Source: Eubacteriales bacterium
GTDB taxonomy: Bacteria; Bacillota; Clostridia; Oscillospirales; CAG-382
DNA: 64,000 bases
Direction of reading: 5' to 3'
Assembly (NCBI GenBank): GCA_045636665.1
Contig: JAZTXY010000086.1
Location: 2,974-66,973 of the forward strand
Shown here piece after piece: positions 4,893-34,585 of this stretch (within the stretch, counting starts at the first letter, position 1; every line of letters starts with the position of its first letter). Position numbers and translations under genes: made by a program. Below the pieces are notes generated by a model. The model saw only the letters and a program-made list of their open reading frames with translations, did not search any database and was not told the DNA's origin.

Positions 4893-4912
4893 AAAGAAGC
4901 AATTCTGAATAA

Positions 4913-4946
4913 ATCCCCAACCGTCATGTAAATGGCGGTTGGGGAT
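4913..4946 (+). terminator. GC-rich hairpin after the giant surface-protein gene (weak or partial terminator)
   Basis: 11-bp perfect stem atccccaaccg / cggttggggat (4913-4923 and 4936-4946) with a 12-nt loop. No clear U-tract follows (aaccctt). Confidence 0.35.
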
Positions 4947-5010
4947 AACCCTTAAAATAAGGAAGAAAACAGGATTCAGTATTAAACGTCTCCAAAGAAA
5001 AGGATGAAAA

Positions 5011-5721: not shown

Positions 5722-7025
5722 GTCCGCTTTTATATGAGATAGTTGTGTATTTTATCGAGTCATTGATATCAGGGATTTTCTTGATTAATGTGCTTGAGGA
5801 GAAGTACTGTAAAGCGATTCACGCAGCGATATGGTGTGCTATTACGGCGGTATCGATTCTTTGTACCGAACCGTTCACACTGCCGCGACTCGGTTTGATT
5901 GCATTTTCGGAGCTTATCTATGCTTGCTTTATGTTTAAAGATAGGCTAAGAAAAAGAATCGGCGCGTTTTTCATCAAGGAACTGTTTCTGATTGCCGCCT
6001 ATGTAATCTCTTTTGCGGTGTGCTCGTTACTTATAGTTGGTCACGGAACGCACTATGTATACGACGGTTGCGAAGACTGTATTTGCCGTTTACTGTATTT
6101 GTTGATTTTCTCCGTTTTGACCTCGATTGTATTTCAATTCACAAAGCAAAAAAAGGGCACGAGGCTTCACCGGGTTGTCATAATGCAACTTCTCATAGGA
6201 TTGGGTGAAGCCACCGCTATTCTTGCTGTGGCGGTTGCATCAAACGGAACGATCACCTCAAAGAACTCTTGTTTTATCATCATAGCTACCGCTTGTATGG
6301 TAGTCGGAAATATTTTTATGGGGATGCTTGTTCCCTATTTACTTCGCAAGATTACGCTGTCAGCTAATTTAGATTACATCAAAAATCTCAGCGTTATGGA
6401 TTATAAATATTATGAAATGTCGGTTGCAAATAACAACAAGCTACGTTCTATTAAACACGACGTTTCAAATCACATACAAACGGCCTATTCGCTTTTCAGT
6501 AACGGAGAAACACAAAGGGGCATTGAGCTTATCAATGAATTGCGAACACGTTATGCCACTGTTGATCAGATGGTGTTTTGCAACAATCCCGTTGTAAACA
6601 TAATCCTCGCCAACAAAAAGAGCGAGGCTGAGGAAAAAAACATTGAAATGTGGATAAACGTAAAGGAAAACCCTGATTGCGCTTGGATTACCGATTTTGA
6701 TCTATCCACTGTTATTTGTAATTTGCTGGACAACGCTATCAGCGGTTGCATTTTCAGTGAGCAATCGCATCCGAGAATAAGCGTTGAAATACTAAGAAAG
6801 AATCGATATTTGGTTATAAAGGTACTCAATTCGTGTAAGGTGGGTATGAATATCGAAAGTACGGATAGGCTTGAAACTACAAAGGAAAATGGCGTTGTTC
6901 ACGGTTTGGGAATGCCGATTATTGCGAGCATTGCCCAAAAATATCGGGGCGATTTTGCGGTTTCTGCACAAAACGGAATATTTACCGCAACAGTTGCGAT
7001 GGCGATAAAGGAAGCCCGGATTTAA
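5718..7025 (+). CDS. Membrane sensor histidine kinase, AgrC/ComD-like (HPK10-type, GHKL ATPase)
   Basis: About 6 N-terminal hydrophobic helices. H-box RSIKHDVSNHIQT, N-box ICNLLDNAISG, G-box HGLGMPIIASIAQKY. Translationally coupled to the LytTR regulator. Confidence 0.8.
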   Translation: MSPLLYEIVVYFIESLISGIFLINVLEEKYCKAIHAAIWCAITAVSILCTEPFTLPRLGLIAFSELIYACFMFKDRLRKRIGAFFIKELFLIAAYVISFAVCSLLIVGHGTHYVYDGCEDCICRLLYLLIFSVLTSIVFQFTKQKKGTRLHRVVIMQLLIGLGEATAILAVAVASNGTITSKNSCFIIIATACMVVGNIFMGMLVPYLLRKITLSANLDYIKNLSVMDYKYYEMSVANNNKLRSIKHDVSNHIQTAYSLFSNGETQRGIELINELRTRYATVDQMVFCNNPVVNIILANKKSEAEEKNIEMWINVKENPDCAWITDFDLSTVICNLLDNAISGCIFSEQSHPRISVEILRKNRYLVIKVLNSCKVGMNIESTDRLETTKENGVVHGLGMPIIASIAQKYRGDFAVSAQNGIFTATVAMAIKEARI

Positions 7026-14162: not shown

Positions 14163-14196
14163 GACCTGCCGCTGTATTAAAATACAGCGGCAGGTC
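14163..14196 (+). terminator. Perfect 14-bp GC-rich hairpin just after the pilin gene (candidate partial terminator/attenuator or mRNA stabiliser)
   Basis: gacctgccgctgta / tacagcggcaggtc with loop ttaaaa. No U-tract follows. Confidence 0.4.
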
Positions 14197-14902: not shown

Positions 14903-14921
14903 AAACGGAGCGTTGAACGGA

Positions 14922-16274
14922 ATGAAAAACAATAAAGTATTAATTATCATAGGCATTATTCTTCTTAATATTTTGGTTGTTTATATGATTGGCCAAAGCT
15001 TGATGGGCAAAACAAGTCAGTATGATTTGACTCTTTCCGAGGCGCGCTCTTTGTCCGAGCAGGAGTTGTGTTCTAAATCGATTGCGAAATATAATGAAGC
15101 GATTATGTTAAAGGACACGCTTGATGTTCGTATCGAGATGATCGGTGTTTACGAAAAAGGGATCGATATTGGTGAATTTACTAATATTTATGACATTGTT
15201 ACATCCGTAACCTCTATTGTGGATGCCTATCGACAAGAACCGCGCGCGTATGAAGCTGCTTGTGAGATGTTTTTGAAATATGATAAATTCGAAGAATGCG
15301 CCAACGTCTTAATGAAAGCGAGAGATCTTCTTGTTACCTCCGATAGAATTGAGGAGCTTCGTAGCCAGGTAAGATATCAGTACACGAAATATTTTGCAAT
15401 GTATACCGAGGTGCTTCCCGTTTTTGACGGTATGTATACCGTCAAGACTGAATATGAGTACACATTCCTTAACGATCAGGGAGCCCCTGATTTTGATGGC
15501 ACCTTTGTCGAAGCTTCTTCCTTTTCTGAAGGCTACGCATTCGTTAAAGGGTCCCATCCCGACGGCACTGACCGATGCATCATAATTAATAAGGCGGGTG
15601 AACGCCAGGCATATCTTAACGGCGTAGAAACGTCTTCCGGCGTAGGACGTGCTAAAAATGCCGAGGGTAGTGACGTTCTCTTGCTTGCATGCAAGGTTGG
15701 CGATAGATATAAATACTTTGATATCAACGGCAAGGAAACTTTCGGCGATTATGCGTTTGCAGGCAGATTTAGAAACAATGTTGCTGCTGTTATGGAATCT
15801 GAGGGCAATTGGAAGCTCATTGACGGAACCGGTAAAGCAATAACCGATGTAACGTTTTCCGACGTGGTGCTTAATGAGTTTGATGAATGTGCAGCAAAGG
15901 GATTTATCTTTGCCAAGGTGGGAGATAAATACTACATATACGATTTGAACGCCAAAAGAATAGGCGACTTTGCTTGCGACGGTGCAAAGGCGTTTGTTGA
16001 TGATTACGCTGCGTTTAAGATAGGGGATCAATGGGGTTTTGTAGGAACAGACGGAGAGATCCTCATCGAGCCACAGTATGAAGATGCGAAGTCTTTCTCA
16101 AACAGTATGGGTGCTGTAAAAACCGGCGCAGGATGGGTATTTATTAATCCTAAAAACGAAATTGTTATTCAAGAAATTTTTGAAGATGTTGACTATCTTA
16201 ACGACAAGGGGATCTGCTTCGTAAAGACCGGAGGATATTGGTCTTATTTGAAGATGTATTATACCGGAAAATAA
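14922..16274 (+). CDS. Membrane-anchored protein with a helical (TPR-like) region and WG/KWG beta-propeller-type repeats
   Basis: N-terminal TM helix VLIIIGIILLNILVVYMIG. Repeats of the type GYAFVKGS..., WKLIDGTGK, WGFVGTDGEILIEPQYEDAKSF, GWVFINPKNEIVI. The ORF-track start is TTG 14913, but ATG 14922 is more plausible. Confidence 0.6.
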   Translation: MKNNKVLIIIGIILLNILVVYMIGQSLMGKTSQYDLTLSEARSLSEQELCSKSIAKYNEAIMLKDTLDVRIEMIGVYEKGIDIGEFTNIYDIVTSVTSIVDAYRQEPRAYEAACEMFLKYDKFEECANVLMKARDLLVTSDRIEELRSQVRYQYTKYFAMYTEVLPVFDGMYTVKTEYEYTFLNDQGAPDFDGTFVEASSFSEGYAFVKGSHPDGTDRCIIINKAGERQAYLNGVETSSGVGRAKNAEGSDVLLLACKVGDRYKYFDINGKETFGDYAFAGRFRNNVAAVMESEGNWKLIDGTGKAITDVTFSDVVLNEFDECAAKGFIFAKVGDKYYIYDLNAKRIGDFACDGAKAFVDDYAAFKIGDQWGFVGTDGEILIEPQYEDAKSFSNSMGAVKTGAGWVFINPKNEIVIQEIFEDVDYLNDKGICFVKTGGYWSYLKMYYTGK

Positions 16275-16290
16275 TGTGAGGTGATACAGT

Positions 16291-17673
16291 TTGAAAAACA
16301 AGAGAGAAAGCGGCGAGGTTGTAGTTGAGGCCTCTATCGTAGTTACACTTGTTATGATTATTATTACAGTTATGCTGTATGTCGGTATGATTCTGTATCA
16401 GCAGACGCTCGTGTCTGTAATGGCAAACCAAACTGCCGCCAATATTTCCCAGGTGTACAGCAATAACCTCAAAGATCCATTTACCGGTTATGTCGACGCA
16501 GAGCGGGTGTATCAGTCTATTACATACGGTAATATGAAGACGGATGCATATATATCGGTTGTCGAGCAAAAGGCTAACGTATTTGCGCAGTATCGCTTAA
16601 AATCCTCGAAAATTTTGGCTAACGGAAATACATCAGTTGACGTACAGATTGTAAAGAAACCGAACGAGCTGTTAAAAAGCCAGATCGTAGTTACTATCAG
16701 AGATCATTACGATATGCCTTTGGTGGGTATGTTTGGCGTGTCGGGTTTAGTGGAGTTTTCTTCTTCAGGTCGCGCTGACTGTGTTGACGTTTTAGAGTAT
16801 GTCAACGGCGTTGAAGCAATTGGAGATCCTGAGGATTCTAATCTTGTCTTTTTGCCGGATACAAAAAGCTGTATGGTTACTTTTGTGCCCGATAGCGATA
16901 AGCCGGGCGATTTTACTGTTGAAACGGTTTTGAAGGGGCATTCGATTATGTCCTCGAATAAGTATACTCACTGTGTGATGCCTGCAGAACCTCAGAAGGG
17001 CGATTTGGAGTTTGCAGGTTGGTATACTGCGGATGGAAGACCTCTTACAGGTACAACGCAGATTGAAGAGAATGTTACTGTTTACGGTAGATGGAAATGC
17101 CAAGTAACGTTTATTATGAACGATAACGGAGCAACCGTTAACGGAAAAGATAAAGATATTATGAAGGTAGTATACGGAAACAGAGCTACTTTTCCGATAC
17201 CTAAGCGTTCCGGATATAGGTTCGCCGGTTGGTTTGACGCTCAAGGAAATTCCTATGTTTCAAACGACACTCGTATTACCCAAAATGTTACCTTGTATGC
17301 AAAATGGGAGTGCCTCCATCCGAGCCGATATGAAGAACGGACCGGAACCGTATGCACCGGCGGAACTATCAAGTATAAATGTGCTCAATGCAACGTCGAA
17401 TTGGGCACAGGATACTATACGGGCAATCATGACAATTGGTATAAGTGTTCACAGCGCCACACGATAAAGATTTTTAACGGTAAAAACGCCTCTGGTGGAT
17501 GCGGTGGATACCACGAACGCGGACAATGGTGCGCCACTTGTGGAGTTACGCATTCTCAAGTGTATTATTATCATGTCGTATGTGCGAATTGCGGAGCAAA
17601 AAGCGGCGGTTGGTGGTGCGGAAATACGCACTGTTCCTATACTATTTACCGTCGTCCGTCCCACCCTTGTTGA
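16291..17673 (+). CDS. TadE-like pseudopilin fused to two Flg_new (Listeria-Bacteroides) repeats and a Cys-rich C-terminal module
   Basis: N-terminus KRESG/EVVVEASIVVTLVMIIITV, with Glu at +5 after the Gly. Repeats: LEFAGWYTADGRPLTGTTQIEENVTVYGRW and YRFAGWFDAQGNSYVSNDTRITQNVTLYAKW. The last 120 aa (from TGC at 17311) hold 13 Cys including CAQC, CATC and CANC. TTG start 7 nt after gtgaggtga. Confidence 0.7.
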   Translation: MKNKRESGEVVVEASIVVTLVMIIITVMLYVGMILYQQTLVSVMANQTAANISQVYSNNLKDPFTGYVDAERVYQSITYGNMKTDAYISVVEQKANVFAQYRLKSSKILANGNTSVDVQIVKKPNELLKSQIVVTIRDHYDMPLVGMFGVSGLVEFSSSGRADCVDVLEYVNGVEAIGDPEDSNLVFLPDTKSCMVTFVPDSDKPGDFTVETVLKGHSIMSSNKYTHCVMPAEPQKGDLEFAGWYTADGRPLTGTTQIEENVTVYGRWKCQVTFIMNDNGATVNGKDKDIMKVVYGNRATFPIPKRSGYRFAGWFDAQGNSYVSNDTRITQNVTLYAKWECLHPSRYEERTGTVCTGGTIKYKCAQCNVELGTGYYTGNHDNWYKCSQRHTIKIFNGKNASGGCGGYHERGQWCATCGVTHSQVYYYHVVCANCGAKSGGWWCGNTHCSYTIYRRPSHPC

Positions 17674-17725
17674 TAATGTGTGCTTTGCAGTTAGTTCATT
17701 TTTTAGTATTTAAAGAGGTTATGCC

Positions 17726-18403
17726 ATGAAAAAGGCGTATATAGTTGCAATTGTTGTAATTGTATTGGGCATAGTAATTACCGCTGTATCGATGTCCTTT
17801 GAATTTAACGATTCGGAAGAAATCGAAGATAAAAATGAGTTATTAAAGTGTTTGACGGTAACAGAGGTTAAGCAGTTTATAGATAACCATAAGGTGGCAA
17901 ACTATGTTTTAAATGACGACGATTGTTTTATTAATGACATTTCGGTTCTCGGTTCGGAATGTGTTTCTAATTTCATTTTTGACGGCGAGGCAGTATCGCA
18001 AATTAAGGTTGAGTATACATTGTTCCAAGATGCTTTCGAGGGTTTGTCCGACGAGGAAATGGAAAACTATGATTTTTCTCAGTATAAGTTCAGCGAAGAG
18101 CATAAAAAGCTTATAAGCGATGCATTCCATAACATAAAAACAGAGTTTGAGAGCTTCGTGGGTTGTACGATTTCGCAGTATGATGTGATTCCTACGCAAG
18201 TTGGTGTTTCTTACGAGGATAGCGATGATCGGTTCTATCAAGGGCACTTGGTAAGAGAGTATTCTGTTCGCGATAGAAATGGCGTGTTATGGCTTTTGAG
18301 ATATAAAGCTGCGTACGGAACGGCACATGCTACATTGATAAAAGTTGTTGACGACTCTGGATACGATGGTTTTATGCCTATTGTAGATTTGACAAAGTCG
18401 TAG
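17726..18403 (+). CDS. Bitopic membrane protein of unknown function, paralogue of 22272-22982
   Basis: N-terminal TM helix YIVAIVVIVLGIVITAV followed by an acidic extracytoplasmic domain. By eye, it shares blocks with the 22272 product (VLGSECVSNFIFDGEAV vs ILGEDAVITYYFDKQGN; YSVRDRNGVLWLLRY vs FSIRDKEGYFWKLSV). Confidence 0.5.
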   Translation: MKKAYIVAIVVIVLGIVITAVSMSFEFNDSEEIEDKNELLKCLTVTEVKQFIDNHKVANYVLNDDDCFINDISVLGSECVSNFIFDGEAVSQIKVEYTLFQDAFEGLSDEEMENYDFSQYKFSEEHKKLISDAFHNIKTEFESFVGCTISQYDVIPTQVGVSYEDSDDRFYQGHLVREYSVRDRNGVLWLLRYKAAYGTAHATLIKVVDDSGYDGFMPIVDLTKS

Positions 18404-18431
18404 AAAAGACTTCCTTGGGAAGGTGATAGAA

Positions 18432-20171
18432 ATGAAGAGAATACAACAAGAACGAGGCGTAATTACAGTTCTTATTTCTTTGCTGTTGGTTGGTATACTG
18501 TCTGTCGGCACTTTGGCAATTGAAGCAGGAAGATATCAAGCAGCAAAGACACAATTGGCTGAATCTAACATTAGCGCTTCGACATCAATGATTGCGGCGT
18601 ATAATCCTGATTTATATGCTCGATACGGATTGTTGGCGATTGACAATGAACGGTTTGCCCCCGAAAGAGCGATAGATTACCTCAATTTTAATGCTGATCA
18701 GGCATTCGGTTATCAAGGAAACAGAGTGTCGAGGTCATACGTAGTTGATTCCGTTGAATTAATGGGATTATACAATCTCACATATCCCTCTGTTATGAAG
18801 AGACAAATCCTTTCTCGAGCAAAATATCATGTTGTTCCAAAGGATTATGCGTTGAATATTTATACGATGGATGCGTTTTTGGCAGACTTCCAAAACAAAT
18901 GTCAATACGTAGCACAGCAACTTTTGCCGGTTGCGAGCGGTGCGGCTGATGCGGGCAGCTTGTCTGACATTCCGGAAGAGATGCAAACTGCTTTAACGGC
19001 GTTGTACGAGACCTACATAACGTTGAAGCAGTATGATGATGATTGCGATATAACTTTGAACGGTCCCACCGTGGCGTTACTCCCCAGTGTAACAGGAACT
19101 GTTAGAAACGATGCACCTTTAGAAGATATTGCGGACATTAATACAGTTCTTAATGACGCTATAACCGTATTGGGGGGCACGGGTTCTTCACTCAGCTATA
19201 ATAACGGAACAGTTACAGATGAAATTGATGTAAATGTCTCAGTTTCTTTTGTTTCTGATATTAAAGACAAACTAAAGTACGTGTCTTCTGCTGCAAATCT
19301 TCAGTCCGATGCAAAAGAACTTGCCGAAAAAACAAGAACTTTGGCTCAGCGTTTAAATGCGGCGATTAATATGCTTGCTTCCGATAAGGAAGAAAGTATT
19401 TTGCTTAATTCTTACATAGCGGAATATTTTTCTAACCGTAATTACCGCATCAACACATATTCGGCTCCCGAAAGGGGAACTGTAATAAACGGCTCTTTGG
19501 ACAACGCAACCTTTGCATCCGCTTGCGTAGAATATGTTTTTGGCGGTGATGCAAGCGAAAGAGCAAATCAAGAGGCTACATACGCTTATATGCAGGCAAT
19601 CAGACTAATTAACAATCTTTATGCGGTTATGAGCGATTCGGCAAGTTTCAACGCTTATAACACATATGTGGTTGCGGCGCATTTGGCATGGGCGAATTTT
19701 GAGAGTATTGTCGATATGGAATTGCTGTCCTCGTACAATATTTCGGTTCCGTTTAATAAGAATAAAATGATTCTTCCTATTAATTCCGTAGAAAGTGTAG
19801 TCGGTGCGTTTTCATCGCACAATACGGCTGATGCGTTAAAGGCACTTGGATATTACAGCGAGGAGAAGACAACATTCATTGTTCCGGGTTCTAACTCATT
19901 TTCCTATAAAGATTCTTTATCCTTCGCTTTGTGGTTTGTGCCAAATTCCGAAAAACTGTTGCGAGTTGCAGACCTTGTTCAATTGGAAATGAGATATCGC
20001 GAGCAACATATTGAAAATAAATCAGCCATGTTTCTTATGAGTGAGCAAAATACGTATTGCAGAATTAAATGCATCGGCAAGTTCAGTCCGTTGCTTCCTA
20101 TACTTGCTTTAGATTCCGGCAATTCTGCGAAAGGAATCACGATTCAGACCATTAAGTATGCCGGTTATTAA
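18432..20171 (+). CDS. TadG-like large pseudopilin / pilus-assembly protein (Tad N-terminal motif)
   Basis: N-terminus QQERG/VITVLISLLLVGILSVGTLAIEAGRY resembles the TadE/G-like signature. About 580 aa of extracytoplasmic domain. ATG 18432 sits 8 nt after gggaagg. Confidence 0.6.
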   Translation: MKRIQQERGVITVLISLLLVGILSVGTLAIEAGRYQAAKTQLAESNISASTSMIAAYNPDLYARYGLLAIDNERFAPERAIDYLNFNADQAFGYQGNRVSRSYVVDSVELMGLYNLTYPSVMKRQILSRAKYHVVPKDYALNIYTMDAFLADFQNKCQYVAQQLLPVASGAADAGSLSDIPEEMQTALTALYETYITLKQYDDDCDITLNGPTVALLPSVTGTVRNDAPLEDIADINTVLNDAITVLGGTGSSLSYNNGTVTDEIDVNVSVSFVSDIKDKLKYVSSAANLQSDAKELAEKTRTLAQRLNAAINMLASDKEESILLNSYIAEYFSNRNYRINTYSAPERGTVINGSLDNATFASACVEYVFGGDASERANQEATYAYMQAIRLINNLYAVMSDSASFNAYNTYVVAAHLAWANFESIVDMELLSSYNISVPFNKNKMILPINSVESVVGAFSSHNTADALKALGYYSEEKTTFIVPGSNSFSYKDSLSFALWFVPNSEKLLRVADLVQLEMRYREQHIENKSAMFLMSEQNTYCRIKCIGKFSPLLPILALDSGNSAKGITIQTIKYAGY

Positions 20172-20183
20172 AGGATGGTAGTT

Positions 20184-22253
20184 ATGAAAAAAAGAGAGCA
20201 AGGCATTCTTACGGTTGAGGCGTCTATCGTTTTGACGCTAATGCTGTTTTTCATATTGTTTTTGTTTAGCTTTGGCCGTGTATACCGCGCACAGAATTTA
20301 GTCAGCCACGCATCGTTGCAATCAGCGGATGCAATAGCATTGGAATCTTATTTGAGAGAAACTGCTCTTCGGTCGGATGCCGAGAAAATCTCGTATCTTG
20401 CTTCGTACATTACGGAATCTACCGCAATCAGTGCCGACGGGCTCGAAAGTCTTAGGTCTGCAAATCTTCCCAAAATAGCAAAGGAAAAATTTATATCCGC
20501 GATCGCAAGCTCGGAAGCCGAGGCTGATAAAAAGCTAAAAAGTATGGGCGTGAAGGATGGACTTGCGGGGATTGATTTTTCCGAGTGTAAAATGGATCTT
20601 GGAAGTGATGACGTAATTGTCGCAATTACATATACACTTGAAATGCAATTTCCTGTTTTTGGTTTTGATGACATAACCGTTACCAAGGTTGCGAAGGCCA
20701 AAACGTTTGGCGAAATATTGTTCGAGGTTTCTACTCGACCCAACAACCCCGGATGGGGATCCACAAGCGGCGACGATAAGGTTACGCACGGTTCTTCCGT
20801 AGTGATCACCGCAACGCCTAATTACGGATATAAATTTGTCAGTTGGAATGACGGTGTGACCGATAATCCCAGAACCGTTACCGTAACCGATGCGCATCAG
20901 TACGTTGCAATTTTCGAAAAGGATCAGTTCGGTGTCAATTTAGGAAAAACGGTTACTTACGATGCAAGCTGTGCCGGAATCGAGCATATAAATTACGGCA
21001 CCGTTACGGGCGCAGGGAATTATGCGTATATGGACAACGCGACCATAACTGCAGTTCCCGAAGCAAATTACACCTTTGTCGGTTGGGATGATAATGGTGA
21101 TGGGATTGCGGATAACACAAGTCCTACAAGAATGATTACCATAGATAAGACGTATAATTTTAAGGCAATTTTCAAACCCGTCACTTATAAAGTTACCGTA
21201 AAATCGAATGATAACTCATACGGCAGTGCGCAAGCTTTTCAAGGAATAAAAAAAGGCGACACTATTGAAGCTGAGTATGGTAGCAGAGTTCAGCTTATAG
21301 CTACGACAAAAGATTCGGTAAGATATCTTTTCAGTAAGTGGAGTAACAACAACACGCAACCATCTGCAACGGTAATAGTAGAGGGAGATGTTGCGTATGA
21401 GGCAATTTTCATAACAAATACATATACCGTTACGTTTTATAACGGTGGTTCGGCGGTTTTCACTACAAACGTAATTCGCGGCAGTTCCGTTAACGGGTCG
21501 AAATCTGTCATCGCATCAAATATGCCCTCTATTCCGGTGAGAAACGGTGCAATATTTGATAAATGGACGTATAGCGGAGGCACCTTTACTGCAACGACCG
21601 TAGTTAATAGCGACCTAAACGTATATGCTTCTTGGAAGTACAACGTTATTCTTGATGCAAACGGCGGTTCTATTTGGAGCGCGCCGAGCAAGACTTTTAG
21701 TATCCCTGACGGCGGTATCTTTGATTTTTCGGCATATATACCCAGCAGAAACGGCTTTGCATTTAACGGTTGGTACTGTGACGGTATTAAATACGCTGAC
21801 AACAGAACTATTAATTCAGCCGCAACTGTTGTCGCATCATGGACATGCAAGCATAGGTATGACAATGGTGTGACAATGTACGAGCCTATTTCCGGTACGA
21901 GCGTAGGATGCAAGAACAGCGCGATTACGTACAGATGCGCGGGTTGTTTTGATGAGTATGTTGTGCAGGGTGAAGGCGCTTGCGTTTTCAAAGGCTGGTG
22001 CGGCACTTGGCATCCGTGTAGTTGGTATACTTATTGCACTTCCGGCTCTACTCATACTTGGAATGGTTACTCTTGTATAACTTGTATTTACTGTGGCCAA
22101 TGCGAGAATCCGGTGTATCGCAAGAGTGGAGGCAAGGATATATATGTTTCTTATTATGCATATTGTAAGACTCACAACGGACATCTTTTGTGGAATCCTG
22201 CAATAAACGCCTTTGAGGAGCGAGTAAAAAAATCAGCATGGCCTCATTCGTAG
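20184..22253 (+). CDS. TadE-like pseudopilin fused to about 6 InlB-B/Flg_new-type repeats and a Cys-rich C-terminal module (paralogue of 16291-17673)
   Basis: N-terminus KREQG/ILTVEASIVLTLMLFFILF. Repeats include YKFVSWNDGVTDNPRTVTV, YTFVGWDDNGDG, YLFSKWSNNNTQ, AIFDKWTYSGG and FAFNGWYCDGIKY. The 135-aa Cys-rich tail starts at TGC 21846 and includes CAGC, CITC and CGQC. Confidence 0.7.
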   Translation: MKKREQGILTVEASIVLTLMLFFILFLFSFGRVYRAQNLVSHASLQSADAIALESYLRETALRSDAEKISYLASYITESTAISADGLESLRSANLPKIAKEKFISAIASSEAEADKKLKSMGVKDGLAGIDFSECKMDLGSDDVIVAITYTLEMQFPVFGFDDITVTKVAKAKTFGEILFEVSTRPNNPGWGSTSGDDKVTHGSSVVITATPNYGYKFVSWNDGVTDNPRTVTVTDAHQYVAIFEKDQFGVNLGKTVTYDASCAGIEHINYGTVTGAGNYAYMDNATITAVPEANYTFVGWDDNGDGIADNTSPTRMITIDKTYNFKAIFKPVTYKVTVKSNDNSYGSAQAFQGIKKGDTIEAEYGSRVQLIATTKDSVRYLFSKWSNNNTQPSATVIVEGDVAYEAIFITNTYTVTFYNGGSAVFTTNVIRGSSVNGSKSVIASNMPSIPVRNGAIFDKWTYSGGTFTATTVVNSDLNVYASWKYNVILDANGGSIWSAPSKTFSIPDGGIFDFSAYIPSRNGFAFNGWYCDGIKYADNRTINSAATVVASWTCKHRYDNGVTMYEPISGTSVGCKNSAITYRCAGCFDEYVVQGEGACVFKGWCGTWHPCSWYTYCTSGSTHTWNGYSCITCIYCGQCENPVYRKSGGKDIYVSYYAYCKTHNGHLLWNPAINAFEERVKKSAWPHS

Positions 22254-22271
22254 GTCGTTATTGGAGGATCT

Positions 22272-22982
22272 ATGAAAAAAAGGAGTATTAATATTATTGC
22301 AATACTTGTCGCGGTGTTGGTTATAGCAATAGCGATTGTTATTATAGTATCATTAGGTCAAGATTCTACCGATTCGTCAGAATCGTCATATACGGCTCAT
22401 GGCCGACAAGATGACTATTTGGGCTTTGCTGCGCTTAGCTTAAATTCGGTTGGCGAGTTTAACGAGTTCGCTAAGAAGGGCGAGTACGAGTGTTTCTTGG
22501 CTTCGGATGGGTCTGGCGGATCTATATATGGAGTTCCGATTCTTGGAGAAGATGCTGTTATAACATATTATTTCGACAAACAGGGAAACACGACTGATTT
22601 TCAAGCATTTTATTATCTTAATGCCGATGTTTCGGCGGTAGAAAATTTTAGCGTAAAGCCCTTGACGACACAAGAGTTAGCCGACGGTATAAACGGTGCA
22701 GTTGCACAGTTTTGCACAATGTTTGAATATAACATCGTGCCCACGCTTTATTTGTCGAATACAGACGGAACGTTTGTTGAGGTAGAAGACGATTCCGCTT
22801 TTCAACGTATCGCGGAAGGCGGTTCAAGTTTGACGTTCAGCATCAGAGACAAGGAAGGATATTTTTGGAAGTTATCAGTATCAGCTACAGGTGAATTGAT
22901 ATCTGCCAATATCAGTAAGTATTTTGATAAAGAAAAAACCAAGAATTATGTTGCAAATATCTCACTATATGAAGAGGGGTAA
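22272..22982 (+). CDS. Bitopic membrane protein, paralogue of 17726-18403
   Basis: N-terminal TM helix INIIAILVAVLVIAIAIVIIV. Same size and same position (directly after a Cys-tailed pseudopilin gene) as its paralogue. Confidence 0.5.
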   Translation: MKKRSINIIAILVAVLVIAIAIVIIVSLGQDSTDSSESSYTAHGRQDDYLGFAALSLNSVGEFNEFAKKGEYECFLASDGSGGSIYGVPILGEDAVITYYFDKQGNTTDFQAFYYLNADVSAVENFSVKPLTTQELADGINGAVAQFCTMFEYNIVPTLYLSNTDGTFVEVEDDSAFQRIAEGGSSLTFSIRDKEGYFWKLSVSATGELISANISKYFDKEKTKNYVANISLYEEG

Positions 22983-30413: not shown

Positions 30414-32735
30414 ATGAAAAACTTCAAACGCGCATTATGTATGGTCTTGTCTTTGTTTTTTGTGTTACAACTGTTTGTCGGATGTTCTTCCGAGCAGACG
30501 GACGAAACCATCTATTTGACAAAAGGCGAGTTTTTTGCTTACTTTGTATACGAAAATGAGATGTCCTCAGAAAAGTATACAGCAGAAGAAATTTTTAACT
30601 CCTATGACGGTGCTATAGAAGCAGATGTAATTGTGGAGTGGGGATATCTTCCTGAAGAATTAGCGAAAAATGATTTAGAAGATCCTGTGACCAAAGAAAT
30701 TGTGGTAATGGCTTGTGCGAACTCGACTTTCGAATTGAAGAAGGGTAACACTGCCGATATTAAGGATGCGGGCTTATTGGAGAATCCGCAACTTATTGCC
30801 GATGCCTATGCCAGTGGATTTTTTGAACTGGAAAACGGGTATTTTGACGGTGCAGAAAAAATGTCCTTTGCTGATTGCGAAAAGGTGATGGAGAAGGCGA
30901 AGGAGTATATGGCCGGTTTCCATTACGAAGCAAACAAGGAAATCACAGAAATTGCTGAAGGGGTGCTCGAACAGGACACCACCGACTATAAAGAGGGCGA
31001 TATTGTTATCGAAATTATTCCGGCGGATGCACAGGAAGAGAAATCGATTGCCAGCACAGGAAATGCAGAGCTAAAACCTTCGACAATGGCATCGGTTGAT
31101 TCTGTTGAGAAATCTACGATTAATTTAGCGAATGGGGCTCCTGATTTGGGTTTGGGAAACCAAGGTACTGGTTTGCCCACACAGACACCTAAAGGGTTTA
31201 TCGCTACTATTGCCAAAAAAACTTTCGAAAAACAATTGGGTAATCCCAAACTTGGTGACGTCGTTGTAGTAAAGGCGTTCGAAATCATTGGTCAGCCTAT
31301 AACTCAAACCGGTGAGGTTATGGGCATTCTGATGGAGAAAAAGTTGATTGGAGATAAGTACACTTGCATCTTTGAATATCCTGCAAGTTTTGAACAAGCG
31401 GTTGAAAAGAAAAATGTGAAGCAGGGCAATGGTTCTGGTATTGATAAGGCAACCTTTGTAGAAGAAAAAACCGAGGTAGCGGGATGGTCATTAGAGTTTG
31501 ACGTGACCGGAAGTTCCATTAAAGTATCTGCTAAAAAAGACTTCAAGTCCTACGAAACCGGAAGAAAACAGGATTGGCAGAATGCTACAAAAACTGTTAC
31601 GGCAACTGCAGACCTGGAAATGAGCAATTTCAATCTTGACGTAAAAAATCTAAAGAGTTTTGCGAATAAAAAGGGTACTGGATTCATCAAGGTTACTTGC
31701 GATACAAATACAGGATTTTCACTAAGCCAAAGCTTGCGGTATACACCGGACAGTAATAGGAATGGCAAGTTCCCATCCAACTGGAGCAATTCAAGGTGGA
31801 CAGATTCGGACGCTAAGGGCGCAAAAACTATCAAGATTGCAAGATTTAGCCCGACACTATATGGTGTGGTCACCATTGATGTGTATGTTTACATGCTGAT
31901 TACAGTGGACGGAAAAGTATCGTTCACAACGTCTATTGATGATGGCGGTGTAATGATCAGCGCTAAAGAGGGAAAGATCAGCACCCAAAAATTGGGCAAA
32001 AAGACTTCGGAATTTAGTGCCAACGTCAATTTGCGTACGCGCTTTGGTGTAGAAGCATCTTTAAAGATTTTTACTTTTATTAAGGTTGTTACTTACGATG
32101 TAGGCGCAAATTTGGATTTGCACGCTCAAGTAGATCTGTACTACGAAGATGTTTTAAGCAAGTCTGGTGTGTATGCGGATGAAGAGGGCCTTAACGAATA
32201 CAAGGAAGATGATGGAAAATTCAGTTATTGTATCGACGCTATGTTGGAACTTAGTGTCAGCGGTGAAATGAAGTCATCCGGTGTCAAGATGATCCTAGAC
32301 TATGTGAATAAGGGTAGTAGCCTTGACTTTGAACACAAAATTTGGAGTGCAGGGCTCCATTTCGAAAACGGTGCTTTTATTGATAAGTGTACTCACGGCG
32401 ACGAAAACGAGGAAGAAAAACTGGAAGAAACTGATGACGACGTAGAGTTAAGTGCGTACAAAATCTCCATGTGCGACAACACGTGTGTCGAAGTGTTGTT
32501 AAAGGCGATTCCTTCCGAAACGGCAAATCTGATGGATTCCAAAAATTCTATCACCGTAAAGAGTAAGAACAATAAAGTTGTAAAGGCCACATATAATAAA
32601 AAACGCAAAGCAATTATCTTAGAAGCTGCAGGCGAAGGTAGTACAGAAATCGTAATTACTGCCAAGAAGGGTCACCTTTGGTGGAAGAAGACGGCTACTC
32701 AAGAAATTTCTGTTACTGTAACTTCTTCAAATTGA
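30414..32735 (+). CDS. Large lipoprotein of unknown function with a C-terminal Big_2-like Ig domain
   Basis: Signal peptide plus lipobox LFVGC/SSEQ. The C-terminal ITVKSKNNKVVKATYNKKRKAIILEAAGEGSTEIVITAKKG resembles Big_2. The central beta-rich region was not recognised. Confidence 0.6.
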   Translation: MKNFKRALCMVLSLFFVLQLFVGCSSEQTDETIYLTKGEFFAYFVYENEMSSEKYTAEEIFNSYDGAIEADVIVEWGYLPEELAKNDLEDPVTKEIVVMACANSTFELKKGNTADIKDAGLLENPQLIADAYASGFFELENGYFDGAEKMSFADCEKVMEKAKEYMAGFHYEANKEITEIAEGVLEQDTTDYKEGDIVIEIIPADAQEEKSIASTGNAELKPSTMASVDSVEKSTINLANGAPDLGLGNQGTGLPTQTPKGFIATIAKKTFEKQLGNPKLGDVVVVKAFEIIGQPITQTGEVMGILMEKKLIGDKYTCIFEYPASFEQAVEKKNVKQGNGSGIDKATFVEEKTEVAGWSLEFDVTGSSIKVSAKKDFKSYETGRKQDWQNATKTVTATADLEMSNFNLDVKNLKSFANKKGTGFIKVTCDTNTGFSLSQSLRYTPDSNRNGKFPSNWSNSRWTDSDAKGAKTIKIARFSPTLYGVVTIDVYVYMLITVDGKVSFTTSIDDGGVMISAKEGKISTQKLGKKTSEFSANVNLRTRFGVEASLKIFTFIKVVTYDVGANLDLHAQVDLYYEDVLSKSGVYADEEGLNEYKEDDGKFSYCIDAMLELSVSGEMKSSGVKMILDYVNKGSSLDFEHKIWSAGLHFENGAFIDKCTHGDENEEEKLEETDDDVELSAYKISMCDNTCVEVLLKAIPSETANLMDSKNSITVKSKNNKVVKATYNKKRKAIILEAAGEGSTEIVITAKKGHLWWKKTATQEISVTVTSSN

Positions 32736-32772
32736 ACAGTAAGCAATACTGATTTCATCACACCTAATTAAG

Positions 32773-32792
32773 TTGCAATAATTCAATTGCAA
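32773..32792. repeat. Inverted repeat TTGCAAT-N6-ATTGCAA upstream of the third WXG-like gene (operator or small hairpin)
   Basis: 7-bp perfect arms at 32773-32779 and 32786-32792. Confidence 0.3.
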
Positions 32793-32825
32793 AATTTAAT
32801 TTGTGCTATTAGAGGAGGTGTTCCT

Positions 32826-33419
32826 ATGGCTATAAACGTGAGTGCAGCAAACAACCAAGCAAATCAGTTGAATGACAATGTTTCCAAATTGTTTGATGCA
32901 AAAAAGCAAATGCAAGTATACAGAGCTTCGCTTTCTGCTAATTGGCAGGGCAAGGAAGTTACTTATATATTAGATGCTATTGATAAGGTTATTTGGGATA
33001 TTGACAGCGCCATAAGAAGCTTAGAGTCTTTGAGCAATGACATAAAGTCCGTTGCCGCGCAGATCAAACGCGAAGAGGATGAGGCTGCAGCGCGCGCTGC
33101 AGCAGAACAACGCGCCGCAGAACAACGTTCGGTGGCAAGTCACAGTGCTGCGGCAAACGCTACGGTAGCACAAACAACGCAGGCAAGCTCCGCTAAACAG
33201 CAAAAAATCAATGCGGCACAAAGCGCTTACGATAACGCAAAGAAAGAATTAGACAAATTATACGATCAAAGGGATAAGCTTAATGATAAAATCAGCAAAG
33301 CCAACATTTTCAAAAAACTTACCTATTTAGATGATTCAACTGCTTTAGAAAAAGCTATAAATGCGGCAGAAGACAACGTTAAAAAGGCACAAAATGCATT
33401 AAAGGCGGCTAAGAAATAA
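32826..33419 (+). CDS. WXG100-like N-domain fused to an Ala/Gln-rich segment and a coiled-coil C-terminal extension
   Basis: SLSANWQGKEVTYILD carries a W-Q-G motif at the usual position of about 40 aa. An AAARAAAEQRAAEQR low-complexity stretch and a heptad-like K/A/D-rich tail follow. ATG 32826 sits 8 nt after gaggagg; the ORF-track TTG 32787 was rejected. Confidence 0.65.
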   Translation: MAINVSAANNQANQLNDNVSKLFDAKKQMQVYRASLSANWQGKEVTYILDAIDKVIWDIDSAIRSLESLSNDIKSVAAQIKREEDEAAARAAAEQRAAEQRSVASHSAAANATVAQTTQASSAKQQKINAAQSAYDNAKKELDKLYDQRDKLNDKISKANIFKKLTYLDDSTALEKAINAAEDNVKKAQNALKAAKK

Positions 33420-33421
33420 CT

Positions 33422-34585
33422 ATGAGTAAGTTTAAGATAGAGCGTGATGCCGGTCAGAGCTTCTTAGTTATCCAAGGGCAAAAGGGTCAACAAATCAGCG
33501 AACGGGAATATTATGCGATAAGCACAGGTCAGATTCCCGGTTTGTTGCGCGCCAATCTTGTTCGTAAAGGTAACACGTTTAAGCTGGTCTATAATATTTC
33601 CGGTTGCATTTCGCTAAGAGAATTTTTGCTTAATCCGTTGAATAAGCAATCTTTTGCAACTTTGCTGAATAACATACTCAATAATCTCAAGGCGTTGCAG
33701 AGAGCGTATTATAACTATCAGTTTATTCTGATGGATATGAATGCCGCAATGGTCAACCCGGCCTCGCAGCAGGTGAGTTTTGTGTACGTTCCCATAACCT
33801 TTTATGAAAGCGGCACAAACCTTAAGGAGTTTTTGCTTAGTATTATTCAGTGCTGTTCGTTTGCACCCGGTGAAAATACGGAATATGTTAGAGAATACAT
33901 AAGAATTCTTAACACGGGTATCAATTTTTCGGTGTTCGATCTTGAGGAGTATATCAAAAGGATACAGCTTGAAAACCGTGCTAATGACCAAGTGAAAAAG
34001 TGCTCCCGTTGCGGTACGTTGATTCAACCGAATGTAAACTTTTGTTCATCGTGCGGAATGAAGCTATCGGGGATTACTCTTGATAGCGCCTATGGCACCT
34101 ACGATCCTGCAAAGGTCGTTATAAGACCGAAGCAACAATCCGAACCGGTGCAACAGCCTATGCGTATGCAGCCTACGCAAGAATCGGGAATGAGCAATGT
34201 GAACGGAGCAAACGGAAACCGTTATTCCGAAACGGTTTCGCACAGTATTTCCGGTATCCCTCAATCCGAACCGATTATGCAGAACCCGAAAAATGCATAT
34301 ATTACACGTTGCAGAACCGGAGAGCGTATTGCAATCATGTCGTCTCAGCTACGTGTTGGCAAGGATCCGCACAACTGTGAATATTGTATTGCCGATAATT
34401 CTGCAATCAGCAGATGCCATGTAGTCATCAAGCACATGAACGGAAAATGGTATATTAACGATTTGAATTCCACTAACAAAACTTATATCAGCGATAGAGC
34501 GATACCCCCTTATACGGATATCGAGCTGTTTGACGGTTTGAGTATTAAATTAGCAAATGAGAACTTTATTTTCAATTTGTATTGA
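33422..34585 (+). CDS. Cytoplasmic FHA-domain protein with a central zinc ribbon; paralogue of 22988-24712
   Basis: Zinc ribbon CSRCGTLIQPNVNFCSSCG. C-terminal FHA motif LRVGKDPHNCEYCIADNSAISRCHVVI...STNKTYISD. The N-domain aligns by eye with the 22988 product (KLVYNISGCISLREFL vs LKYNISAKVTAEQFF; VSFVYVPI vs AMICVPV). Confidence 0.8.
   Translation: MSKFKIERDAGQSFLVIQGQKGQQISEREYYAISTGQIPGLLRANLVRKGNTFKLVYNISGCISLREFLLNPLNKQSFATLLNNILNNLKALQRAYYNYQFILMDMNAAMVNPASQQVSFVYVPITFYESGTNLKEFLLSIIQCCSFAPGENTEYVREYIRILNTGINFSVFDLEEYIKRIQLENRANDQVKKCSRCGTLIQPNVNFCSSCGMKLSGITLDSAYGTYDPAKVVIRPKQQSEPVQQPMRMQPTQESGMSNVNGANGNRYSETVSHSISGIPQSEPIMQNPKNAYITRCRTGERIAIMSSQLRVGKDPHNCEYCIADNSAISRCHVVIKHMNGKWYINDLNSTNKTYISDRAIPPYTDIELFDGLSIKLANENFIFNLY

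Follow-up and report, generated by a model that had tools for sequence, protein, structure and literature searches.

The window, meaning the whole 64,000-nucleotide stretch of DNA analysed here, contains two large pseudopilin genes, PP1 and PP2, in a locus that is embedded in a conserved array of Tad pilus and type VII secretion genes. Genes for TadA, TadZ, TadB, TadC, a Flp1_like protein and an A24 peptidase lie upstream of the PP1/PP2 region, so that both pseudopilins have the genomic setting characteristic of TadE-like pseudopilins, alongside TadA/B/C, Flp and an A24 prepilin peptidase. The kinase, phosphatase, FHA, EssC and WXG100 genes that make up the array around the pilus genes are likewise conserved, and in more than 20 species the Tad and type VII genes are intermingled, with kinase, phosphatase and FHA genes in common. 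A survey of clostridial Tad loci for the same module, as the preliminary description of the window had proposed, recovered it in 22 related loci from uncultured gut Clostridia, which form the comparison set; the gene order WG-repeat, PP1, partner, DUF5702, PP2, partner (not in every locus) and DUF6382-FHA is kept among them. The features of the window are:

16291..17673 (+): PP1, TadE-like pseudopilin 1, 460 aa, assigned by class III leader, Pfam and N-terminal homology to PP2
16864..17313 (+): PP1 stalk, two Flg_new (InlB B-repeat type) repeats, residues ~192-341, assigned by Pfam and FxxW signatures
17305..17673 (+): PP1 head, Cys/His-rich tail of type 1, residues ~339-460, assigned by composition and clustering
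17726..18403 (+): partner 1, 225 aa, predicted N-in/C-out signal-anchor helix and extracytoplasmic alpha/beta domain
18423..20171 (+): DUF5702 protein with TadG-type N-terminus, 582 aa, assigned by Pfam DUF5702 (53 bits) and synteny
20184..22253 (+): PP2, TadE-family pseudopilin 2, 689 aa, assigned by its leader MKKREQG and a TadE Pfam match
20724..21422 (+): PP2 scaffold stalk, three Flg_new_2 repeats, residues ~181-413, assigned by Pfam (Flg_new_2, 76 bits)
21423..21842 (+): PP2 distal stalk, two Flg_new repeats, residues ~414-553, assigned by BLASTP with the PP1 repeats
21840..22253 (+): PP2 head, Cys/His-rich tail of type 0, residues 553-689, assigned by conservation and profile search
22272..22982 (+): partner 2, 236 aa, predicted signal-anchor helix 6-29, acidic linker and alpha/beta ectodomain 44-223

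The coordinates, motifs and spacings previously given for both gene pairs were all reproduced. Each pseudopilin begins with a class III signal, namely a charged leader ending in Gly, a Glu at position +5 and a hydrophobic helix. PP1 starts MKNKRESG/EVVVEAS (MKNKRESG followed by EVVVEASIVVTLV), with predicted cleavage after G8, and PP2 starts MKKREQG/ILTVEAS (MKKREQG followed by ILTVEASIVLTLM); the Gly and the Glu are invariant within the PP1 and PP2 families. PP2, for which 382 homologues were found, scores 31.3 bits against TadE (PF07811), above the Pfam cut-off of 22.9, while PP1 itself, at 15.7 bits, falls under that cut-off; a TadE match at E<=0.01 is present in 10 of 13 PP1 orthologues. 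The pilin domain extends to about residue 190 in PP1 and about residue 180 in PP2. In profile-profile comparison the first 55 residues of the two proteins align (hhalign probability 96.7%), and the similarity of the pilin domains is confined to these first ~55 residues. Pairwise BLASTP gives one alignment that covers the two Flg_new repeats and runs into the tail (E=7e-17) and another at the N-terminus (E=6e-4). The locus is not the duplicated two-gene module that it had been taken for; it comprises two different pseudopilin scaffolds, each with one member of a family of exchangeable cassettes. The gene between the two cassette-bearing pseudopilins, which holds this position in every locus that covers it, had been called TadG-like. 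Its DUF5702 assignment stands, but its match to the Tad N-terminal domain (PF13400) is weak, at 14.3 bits against a cut-off of 22.3 (E=0.053), and the protein is best regarded as a candidate third large pseudopilin.

Downstream of the pilin domain both proteins carry tandem beta-grasp repeats of the Flg_new/InlB B-repeat type (PF09479, PF18998), with Pfam scores above gathering thresholds: 59 bits for Flg_new over two stretches of PP1, and 76 bits for Flg_new_2 and 50 bits for Flg_new in PP2. FxxW signatures lie at residues 238 and 308 of PP1 and at 215, 295 and 380 of the PP2 scaffold stalk. The earlier count of two repeats in PP1 was correct, but PP2 has five and not "about six": its repeat region holds five xxxFxxW signatures, and another match falls within the tail. 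Foldseek hits for the PP2 stalk include the InlB B-repeat (InlB392), tandem beta-grasp (ubiquitin-like) repeats and the stalks of surface proteins. The AF2 model of PP2 (pLDDT 86) has a long N-terminal helix (6-63) followed by beta sheet, and overall it resembles a pilin at the N-terminus, continues into the repeat stalk and finishes with small hairpins that make up the tail (tail pLDDT 73-93). Pfam, AF2 and Foldseek together support the description of modular pseudopilins, in which the class III signal and the pilin domain are followed by a Flg_new stalk and, at the C-terminus, by a separate module. With Flg_new repeats and a Cys/His head placed after the pilin domain, these are modular pilins in the sense of Raynaud et al. 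2021, who apply the term to a pilin module joined to a domain not particular to pilus biology and whose survey covered pilins of the IPR012902 type only, a type to which PP1 and PP2 do not belong (PMC8179133).

The C-terminal heads are distinguished by their composition. Cys and His make up 7.8% and 5.4% of the tails and 1.2% each of the rest of the same proteins; PP1 has 17 Cys in total and PP2 has 16, and the last 150 aa of PP1 alone hold 13 Cys and 8 His. Both tails contain the motifs CxxC, C[GN]xxH and CxxCxxC, and across the loci CxxC occurs in 38/38 tails and C[GN..]xxH in 35/38. The tails had been described as related Cys-rich modules, which is true of composition and motifs but not of sequence, since they belong to different types (normalised similarity 0.10). 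Within type 0, 10 Cys and 5 His are invariant. Type 1, to which the PP1 tail of the window belongs, also includes the PP1 tails of loci L002, L015, L017, L018 and L023 and the PP2 tails of L006 and L022. Searches of the head against Pfam, NCBIfam, PHROG and PDB gave no match and recognised no toxin or enzyme family; a type 0 profile found just five representatives among 1.84 billion proteins, all of them pseudopilins of the same system. In some relatives the place of the Cys-rich head is taken by a Big_2 or Ig_Eae tail. Because of its Cys/His composition and conservation, the head probably binds zinc, and the sequence suggests that 3-4 zinc sites, instead of disulfides, probably hold its fold.

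The partner genes begin 52 nt after PP1 and 18 nt after PP2. Physical linkage alone could in principle account for the co-inheritance of head and partner. Each partner has a single N-terminal hydrophobic helix, with a K/R-rich start, ~22 hydrophobic residues and an acidic linker that is disordered in the AF2 model of partner 2 (pLDDT 81); a lipobox replaces the signal anchor in two partner orthologues. The two partners do resemble each other, as had been noted, with a significant pairwise alignment (BLASTP E=3e-6, 22% identity over 189 aa). Partner 1 matches no family in Pfam, NCBIfam, PHROG or PADLOC, and the model of partner 2, a protein with 16 homologues, has no structural relative in PDB and BFVD at E<=1e-3. 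A partner is the next gene after 34 of 37 Cys-rich tails and after none of 6 non-Cys tails (Fisher p=1.4e-5, phylogeny ignored). The second partner is optional among relatives, being present in 12 loci and absent from 9. Cys-rich PP2 tails with no partner adjoining or within the available flanks occur in L002, L007 and L012; L008, where the PP2 gene is interrupted, and L014, which ends ~1 kb past PP2, are uninformative in this respect. A partner HMM applied to the 64 kb window and the flanks of the 22 loci found copies beside tails only and no orphan genes, and orphan tail fragments were likewise absent from the window and the locus flanks.

Head and partner types are closely matched. There are at least five types, shared by heads and partners alike, and tail clusters agree with partner clusters at an ARI of 0.93, a value reached by none of 5000 permutations over the 22 loci; the agreement of tail or partner type with the carrier pseudopilin (position) is ~0.09. 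When divergence of the DUF5702 protein is controlled for, tail and partner remain correlated (partial Mantel rho 0.41, p<=5e-4). In the window, partner 1 accompanies the type 1 head on PP1 and partner 2 the type 0 head on PP2, while type 0 is found on PP1 in L006 and L019 and type 1 on PP2 in L006 and L022. Exchange is seen between L006 and L019, which share ~95% DNA identity and differ by one clean replacement of the head/partner block: identity is ~40% from about codon 406 of PP2 through the last codon of partner 2, and 93-97% beyond. Similarly, PP1 and its L016 orthologue drop from ~90% to 40-50% identity at residue ~270, and identity of PP2 with L015 and L018 falls from residue ~445-475. 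The cassette therefore consists of the last 1-2 Flg_new repeats, the Cys/His tail of ~125 aa and the partner gene; the distal stalk of PP2 is its 5' part and the second repeat of PP1 likewise lies inside the exchangeable block, while the three Flg_new_2 repeats of the PP2 scaffold stalk are conserved together with their scaffold. Head, terminal repeats and partner gene are exchanged as one cassette, and either pseudopilin can carry a given type. Within types dN/dS is 0.07-0.18, and head and partner are therefore both under purifying selection. The architecture, the cassette boundaries and the tail/partner concordance are direct observations, and the concordance in 22 loci, with cassette replacement between near-identical genomes, bears out the earlier proposal of a dedicated partner for each module.

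The pilus tip thus seems to be polymorphic, and each type of head to have a matching helper of its own. The most likely explanation, to which we assign a probability of about 0.5, is a polymorphic Tad tip head, probably zinc- and ligand-binding, that is served by a head-specific extracytoplasmic accessory protein. According to this model, PP1 and PP2 would both serve a Gram-positive Tad (Flp) pilus as minor pilins of the TadE type, distinct from one another, and together with the DUF5702/TadG-like protein would most likely form a filament-priming complex that ends up at the tip. The stalk of beta-grasp Flg_new repeats would project the Cys/His head, and the head would be the ligand-binding end that determines the target of the pilus; recombination swaps the entire cassette block in one step. 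The partner, presumably tethered at the outer face of the membrane by its signal anchor, or by a lipid anchor in some relatives, would bind its own type of head while the pseudopilin is still in the membrane, would likely fold, metal-load, hold or mask that head until the pseudopilin joins the pilus, and would itself stay outside the filament. We infer the tip location, the binding of zinc and ligand and the chaperone-like role, and the words "adhesin" and "chaperone" are used by analogy, because neither tail nor partner has a detectable relative of known function. Since the window holds two different cassettes, one tip may have two specificities; types 1 and 0 would fit the two alternative binding specificities suggested in the preliminary description. 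The placement of the pilus genes inside the kinase/phosphatase/FHA/EssC/WXG100 array similarly suggests that tip contact may serve type VII secretion.

A swappable head at the end of two minor pilins is a candidate for a discrete determinant of what the Tad pili of Gram-positive gut anaerobes bind. The matched, membrane-tethered partner would be the sign of a specific protein-protein interaction, and the reason for the adjacency of Tad and type VII genes was left open in a survey of type VII variants published in 2024. As zinc-stabilised binding modules, the heads would constitute a new extracellular domain family of strict anaerobes; as effectors, they would represent a new mode of delivery.

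The latter case corresponds to a pilus-borne polymorphic toxin, in which an antibacterial or envelope-active head at the Tad tip would be paired with a cognate immunity protein at the outer face of the membrane. Such an arrangement would account for a conserved N-terminal delivery part with a variable C-terminus, a cognate downstream gene and block-wise recombination, all of which are found here, as well as for the restriction of the partner to Cys-rich tails and for its membrane-anchored ectodomain, the expected site of immunity to an envelope-acting toxin. The domains of polymorphic toxins are, however, usually common to several delivery systems, whereas the type 0 head occurs on these pseudopilins only, among 1.84 billion representatives, and the head matches no toxin or enzyme family. 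Its ~125 aa, with 3-4 presumed metal sites, leave little space for a catalytic fold; no orphan cassettes lie in the 64 kb window or the flanks of 22 loci; three Cys-rich tails have no partner nearby; and the tails that replace it in relatives are Ig domains of the adhesin type. Although the locus is joined to type VII secretion, a contact-dependent antagonism machine (PMC11217815), and although Myxococcus Tad pili function in contact-dependent killing (PMC12075869), we consider the toxin explanation unlikely. Equally tentative is a broader proposal, that a Tad tip with allelic identity or weapon cassettes (effector or recognition heads with immunity or recognition partners) forms, with the co-encoded type VII secretion system under kinase/FHA control, a machine for contact-dependent discrimination and attack in gut Clostridia; if true, it would be a Gram-positive counterpart of Myxococcus Kil/T3SS* with toxin/immunity-like logic in a pilin.

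The concordance might instead reflect linkage without function, the partner being a generic, fast-evolving Tad assembly or envelope component that hitch-hikes with recombination at the pseudopilin 3' end. Co-inheritance of adjacent genes is expected, the upstream breakpoints vary inside conserved repeats as homologous recombination in repeats would have it, and the absence of the second-position partner from 9 loci indicates that it is not essential for every pseudopilin. Against this, the downstream breakpoint between L006 and L019 is the very end of the partner gene, with identity back in the next gene; concordance persists over deep divergence and across positions; one operon keeps two copies of different type; a partner never follows a non-Cys tail (0/6); and both parts are under purifying selection within type. 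We consider hitch-hiking improbable. Self or kin recognition, in which a head would be recognised by the matching partner on siblings, or the partner handed over, in order to gate adhesion or type VII attack, would draw on the several deep allelic types with matched pairs, the two independent pairs per genome, within-type purifying selection and the association with a contact-dependent secretion system and kinase/FHA signalling genes. It is nevertheless without precedent among Tad systems, and the ~190-residue ectodomain is predicted from its topology to lie under the cell wall of a monoderm, where a foreign tip could hardly reach it, which makes this explanation very improbable. Minor pilin C-terminal domains that bind a secreted protein of the same operon are known, as in type IVb pili, whose minor pilins CofB and TcpB bind CofJ and TcpF, respectively (PMC6048534, PMC9565799), and a tip-bound co-adhesin, released by signal peptide cleavage and docked on its cognate head, would also predict matched types. 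The hydrophobic stretch of ~22-25 residues has, however, no obvious signal-peptidase I site, and the lipobox in two orthologues points to membrane retention, so that a released partner seems most improbable of all.

The head/partner cassette has parallels outside Tad pili. In phage tail-fibre tips (for example Mu/P1 S/U, T-even gp37/gp38) the receptor-binding C-terminus varies and is swapped together with the chaperone specific to it, which is encoded downstream; proteins and setting are unrelated to those described here, and the partner AF2 model has no significant match among viral proteins (BFVD). CdiA-CT/CdiI, Rhs-CT and type VIIb LXG toxins likewise combine a conserved N-terminus, a variable C-terminal module, a cognate downstream gene and block-wise exchange. 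The present cassettes differ in being carried by a pilin and in having no recognisable toxin domain; their head is restricted to one pseudopilin family, and no orphan cassettes are seen in the window and locus flanks. In PilV of IncI-type conjugative type IV pili, shufflon-selected C-termini set which cells the pilus binds (PMC9045228), and as in the present system a single minor pilin scaffold receives alternative C-terminal segments. PilV varies, however, through site-specific inversion in a single cell line, and no partner gene takes part, whereas the cassettes here are allelic, are exchanged between lineages and each include a cognate partner.

For the partners, a parallel in role and position only is found in the FimB-like proteins TfpX, TfpY and TfpZ of Pseudomonas aeruginosa, accessory proteins linked to pilin alleles (Qaderi et al. 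2025; PMC11841053). These are also membrane-anchored, with an extracytoplasmic globular domain, are ~235-245 aa long and are encoded directly after the variable pilin allele; their variable domain is proposed to match the pilin, and they aid assembly, apparently interact with pilin and are undetected in pili (PMC11841053). TfpY-like proteins, which have three N-terminal TM helices and are able to cross-complement, go with the major pilin of the type IVa pili of Pseudomonadota, while the partners have a single TM helix or lipobox, and no relationship to TfpY-like proteins in sequence or fold was detected.

Among pilins, PilB and PilC of Streptococcus sanguinis carry a vWA and a lectin module, respectively (Raynaud et al. 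2021; PMC8179133), and resemble the present proteins in fusing a pilin to a filament-presented module in a monoderm, with proposed tip exposure and diverse architectures. They are type IVa-like, with the IPR012902 motif, recognisable adhesion domains and no dedicated partner gene, in contrast to the TadE-type pilin module, undescribed Cys/His head and cognate partner found here. The adaptable Tad tips of Myxococcus xanthus are TadE/TadF/TadG-like heterotrimers of KilL, KilM and KilN (Herrou et al. 2025; PMC12075869). They share with the present system three minor pilins per tad locus, large ones with variable C-terminal modules, prediction of these modules at the pilus extremity, several tip variants and a tie to a secretion machine, by function to T3SS* in Kil and by gene linkage to type VII here. 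Kil variation consists of whole paralogous three-gene sets in a diderm, with the variable module on the TadG-like KilN, and the sections of the paper that were covered describe no cognate non-pilin partner gene for Kil tips; the present system has one per head, and has two TadE-like pilins with repeat stalks and Cys/His heads that vary by 3' cassette replacement.

The module comprises two TadE-type pseudopilins (PP1 and PP2), each followed directly by the gene of a membrane-tethered protein (partner 1 and partner 2), together with a DUF5702 protein:

16291-17673, + strand: PP1, pseudopilin, 460 aa
17726-18403, + strand: partner 1, membrane-tethered protein, 225 aa
18423-20171, + strand: DUF5702 protein, 582 aa
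20184-22253, + strand: PP2, pseudopilin, 689 aa
22272-22982, + strand: partner 2, membrane-tethered protein, 236 aa

Both pseudopilins open with a class III signal (MKNKRESG/EVVVEAS in PP1, MKKREQG/ILTVEAS in PP2), in agreement with the preliminary description, and the 52 and 18 nt that it placed between each pseudopilin and its partner were measured as such; the gaps from PP1 to partner 2 are, in order, 52, 19, 12 and 18 nt, with 5 nt before the next gene. PP2 scores 31.3 bits against the Pfam TadE family (curated cut-off 22.9) and also matches Flg_new_2 and Flg_new. PP1 reaches 59 bits for Flg_new and 15.7 bits, under the cut-off, for TadE, which is found at E<=0.01 in 10 of 13 PP1 orthologues. 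The many Flg_new repeats described for PP2 are present, but their number is not about six, as there are five xxxFxxW signatures and the sixth match lies inside the tail. Nearly all of the cysteines of PP1 (17) and PP2 (16) fall within the final ~130 residues, the Cys/His-rich module termed here the head. The mechanical PP2 reading frame begins at the ATG at 20175 (MVVMKKREQG); 20184 is the likely start, because most of the 112 listed pilin-type homologues have an MKK(R/K)EQG-type N-terminus.

Upstream of the module lie genes for a Ser/Thr kinase, a PP2C phosphatase, TadA, TadZ, TadB, TadC, an Flp1_like pilin, an A24 prepilin peptidase and a WG-repeat membrane protein. Downstream are those for a DUF6382-FHA protein, an FHA-EssC ATPase, a YukD-like protein and two WXG100 proteins. 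The module thus stands among interleaved genes for a Tad pilus and for type VII secretion. Promoter-like and terminator-like sites occur at chance level in a scan of 13.8-25 kb; this result and the extreme shortness of the gaps are compatible with transcription as a single long unit.

The relationship between the two gene pairs proved to be more intricate than a duplication. The similarity noted earlier was borne out on alignment, both for PP1 and PP2 (BLASTP E=7e-17 across the Flg_new repeats into the beginning of the tail; E=6e-4 at the N-terminus) and for the partners (E=3e-6, 22% identity over 189 residues). More specifically, profile-profile comparison of the pilin domains aligns their first 55 residues only (probability 96.7%, E=4.6e-10), corresponding to the signal and first helix, and the two cassettes, each running from the final one or two Flg_new repeats through the head to the partner gene, differ in type (type 1 on PP1, type 0 on PP2; tail similarity 0.10, partner similarity 0.09). 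The claim of a duplicated two-gene module is therefore not sustained, and the same two results rule out a recent tandem duplication of the PP1 and PP2 modules. As judged from these alignments, the scaffolds are different pseudopilin families, as TadE is from TadF, and it is the cassette, not the whole gene pair, that occurs twice in the window, in copies of different types.

Related loci were compared using 22 distinct loci (handles within L001-L023) from metagenome-assembled genomes of uncultured gut Clostridia, assigned to Acutalibacteraceae, Ca. Fimenecus, Ca. Avispirillum, Lachnospiraceae and Ruminococcus. When all pseudopilin tails (C-terminal 125 residues) and all partner ectodomains were clustered independently, tail and partner clusters agreed with an adjusted Rand index of 0.93 (0 of 5000 permutations as high), against ~0.09 for either set of clusters compared with position as PP1 or PP2. 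Type 0 cassettes are carried by PP2 in six loci including the window, and by PP1 in L006 and L019; type 1 cassettes are carried by PP1 in six loci including the window, and by PP2 in L006 and L022. The correlation between tail and partner holds when local phylogeny is controlled via DUF5702 (partial rho 0.41, p<=5e-4).

The loci L006 and L019 are revealing of the unit that is exchanged. They are near-identical, with dS of ~0.2-0.3 in most genes compared and dN of <=0.03 in TadB, TadC, PP1, partner 1 and DUF5702, while their PP2 tails (dN 0.76) and PP2 partners (dN 0.83) are unrelated. DNA identity is ~95% until PP2 codon ~406, the start of the fourth repeat, falls to ~40% across the tail and partner gene, and is 93-97% again exactly from the start of the next gene. 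Between the PP1 of the window and that of L016, identity drops from ~90% to 40-50% at residue ~270, and the tails share 3-27%, mostly <25%. Together these breakpoints delimit an exchangeable unit that begins with the final one or two Flg_new repeats, continues through the head and closes with the partner gene. From these sequence comparisons, a cassette with cognate pairing of head and partner can be proposed with high confidence. Within types, dN/dS is 0.07-0.18 for heads and partners alike, indicating purifying selection; positive selection as the source of diversity is unsupported by these values, and by the same measure the diversity is that of a shuffled set of old types rather than of rapid drift.

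Gene order (WG-repeat protein, PP1, partner, DUF5702, PP2, partner where present, DUF6382-FHA) is the same in all loci covering these positions. The module is in this respect only partly constant: a PP1 partner is present wherever PP1 is covered, but a PP2 partner is found in 12 loci and missing from 9. Partners follow 34 of 37 Cys-rich tails versus 0 of 6 non-Cys ones (Fisher p=1.4e-5, uncorrected for phylogeny). The Cys-rich PP2 tails lacking a partner (L002, L007 and L012) show 27-34% identity to partnered types, and an HMM of all partners detected no further copies across the window and locus flanks. The non-Cys PP2 C-termini are those of L005, L009, L010, L011, L013 and L018, with a partner after none; L009, L011 and L018 form one related group, with a weak Ig_Eae match in L018, and several are Tyr-rich, ending in ..GGGYYDYY[IF]S.. 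(L005, L010) or ..GYYISKI.. (L009, L011).

PP2 has 382 homologues, in which the N-terminal ~70% is conserved and the C-termini are variable, mostly Cys-rich, some with Big_2, Ig_Eae or other tails. Among the 112 with an intact class III signal, the final 140 residues contain at least 7 Cys in 86 and <5 Cys in 21. The same database holds 3 detectable relatives of partner 1 and 16 of partner 2, all without a family assignment. Megablast of the region against plasmids gave no matches, and a scan of metagenome contigs with a PP2 N-domain profile gave 270 pattern matches, of which none was confirmed.

In the PP2 model (pLDDT 86) a long N-terminal helix (residues 6-63) leads into a small pilin domain of helices and beta-sheet extending to about residue 180, followed by five beta-rich repeats and a tail of short hairpins (pLDDT 73-93). 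Foldseek relates the stalk to tandem beta-grasp repeats, the InlB B-repeat and Gram-positive surface-protein stalks; this stalk dominates the whole-protein fold search, which is uninformative on the head. The tails contain 7.8% Cys and 5.4% His, compared with 1.2% each in the remainder of the proteins, and carry the motifs CxxC (38 of 38), C[GN..]xxH (35 of 38) and CxxCxxC (27 of 38), with ten Cys and five His invariant in type 0 heads. For strict anaerobes, the conservation of His beside Cys suggests three or four putative zinc sites in preference to disulfides. A heme-binding head was dropped as a candidate, the CxxCH motif being missing from those tail sequences that were read by eye. Among 1.84 billion proteins the type 0 head profile found five representatives, all pseudopilins of this Tad system; it has no relatives among PDB sequences, and searches of tails and partners against PDB sequences likewise gave no matches.

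In the partners a K/R-rich start is followed by ~22 hydrophobic residues and then by an acidic linker, a pattern that indicates an N-in/C-out topology. Partner 2 is modelled (pLDDT 81) with a signal-anchor helix at residues 6-29 and an alpha/beta ectodomain at 44-223, joined by a disordered acidic linker. Fold searches of PDB and BFVD with this model gave nothing at E<=1e-3; only weak resemblances, PsbP/Mog1/DcrB/LpqN-like and phage-lipoprotein-like, were seen and are not relied on. Pfam, NCBIfam, PHROGs and PADLOC returned nothing meaningful for the partners. A lipobox replaces the anchor helix in two orthologues, L023:5531-6193 (LVAC) and L016:7653-8201 (LLSGC). With either device the ectodomain would be tethered to the outer face of the membrane; the mode of tethering is interchangeable, the extracytoplasmic location being kept.

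Trimers of TadE/TadF/TadG-like proteins are predicted to cap Tad pili and expose variable modules (PMC12075869), and by analogy PP1, DUF5702 and PP2 probably form a priming tip complex. The repeat stalks would carry both heads, the presumed sites of ligand binding, clear of the tip. Each partner would serve as an accessory protein specific to its head, folding, metal-loading, holding or masking it on the outer side of the membrane before the pseudopilin departs. Such a mechanism has three precedents. Phage tail fibres carry a receptor-binding tip and its own chaperone as a cassette. The others are accessory proteins linked to pilin alleles, which help assembly without entering the pilus (PMC11841053), and modular pilins (PMC8179133).

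On these analogies, an adhesin-plus-accessory function of head and partner is given a probability of roughly 0.5. The layout perfectly fits a toxin head with an immunity partner, in a locus fused with type VII secretion genes. Against this, a recognisable toxin fold is absent from the head, the head is confined to these pilins, orphan cassettes are missing from the window and locus flanks, three of the heads are without a partner, and Ig-type adhesin domains take the place of the head in the alternative tails; the explanation is unlikely. An effector/immunity or identity system that is carried on the pilus and works together with type VII secretion is likewise unlikely. Concordance of head and partner might instead reflect pure linkage without function, but the exact downstream breakpoint, the retention of two unlike copies per operon and the absence of partners after non-Cys tails render this quite improbable. 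There is only a slight chance that head and partner are a self-recognition pair, and a slighter one that the partner is secreted and tip-bound in the manner of CofJ/TcpF, which membrane tethering disfavours.

Minor pilins of modular build, Tad tips that are adaptable, and Tad genes adjacent to type VII genes were known before. A literature search found no earlier description of TadE-type pilins that combine an Flg_new stalk with a Cys/His head, of heads exchanged as a cassette from one pilin scaffold to a different one, or of a cognate membrane-tethered partner for each head type.

The interleaved Tad/type VII array spans 7115-34585, with the kinase and PP2C genes upstream of tadA, and its type VII part matches the T7SSe-like component set of a 2024 survey in which Tad adjacency is given only for T7SSg and T7SSh (PMC11217815). 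Interleaving is kept in nearly all related loci with sufficient flank (L019 is an exception, within 10 kb), in two flavours, one T7SSe-like as in the window and the other T7SSf-like, with a second DUF6382-FHA protein, a ParA/TadZ-like ATPase, YukD and an EssC of only ~30% identity; a single WXG100 is present in L017, the sole T7SSf-like locus extending beyond EssC. At 30414-34585, after the WXG100 genes, are proteins of 773 and 210 aa without a family match (relatives of 802 aa in L018 and 160 aa in L001), and then a second DUF6382/zinc-ribbon/FHA protein (33422-34585); possible roles are as structural parts or as substrates of the type VII system.

The WG-repeat protein (14913-16274) is 453 aa long and combines a TM helix at its N-terminus with WG_beta_rep repeats. 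All loci examined encode it between the peptidase and PP1, at 48-72% identity, and it seems to be a constant part of this Tad variant. A perfect 15-bp stem with 9 G-C pairs and a loop of 4 (14163-14196) occupies the 74-nt gap between the Flp pilin gene (end 14150) and the prepilin peptidase gene (start 14225), and could be an attenuator or stabiliser setting the ratio of major pilin to machinery. Directly upstream of the kinase/Tad/type VII array, 78-7025 encodes a 1604-aa protein with weak Ig-like matches (Big_13, Big_3_3) and, after it, a LytTR response regulator and a GHKL histidine kinase, which may represent a regulatory input or a further surface protein.
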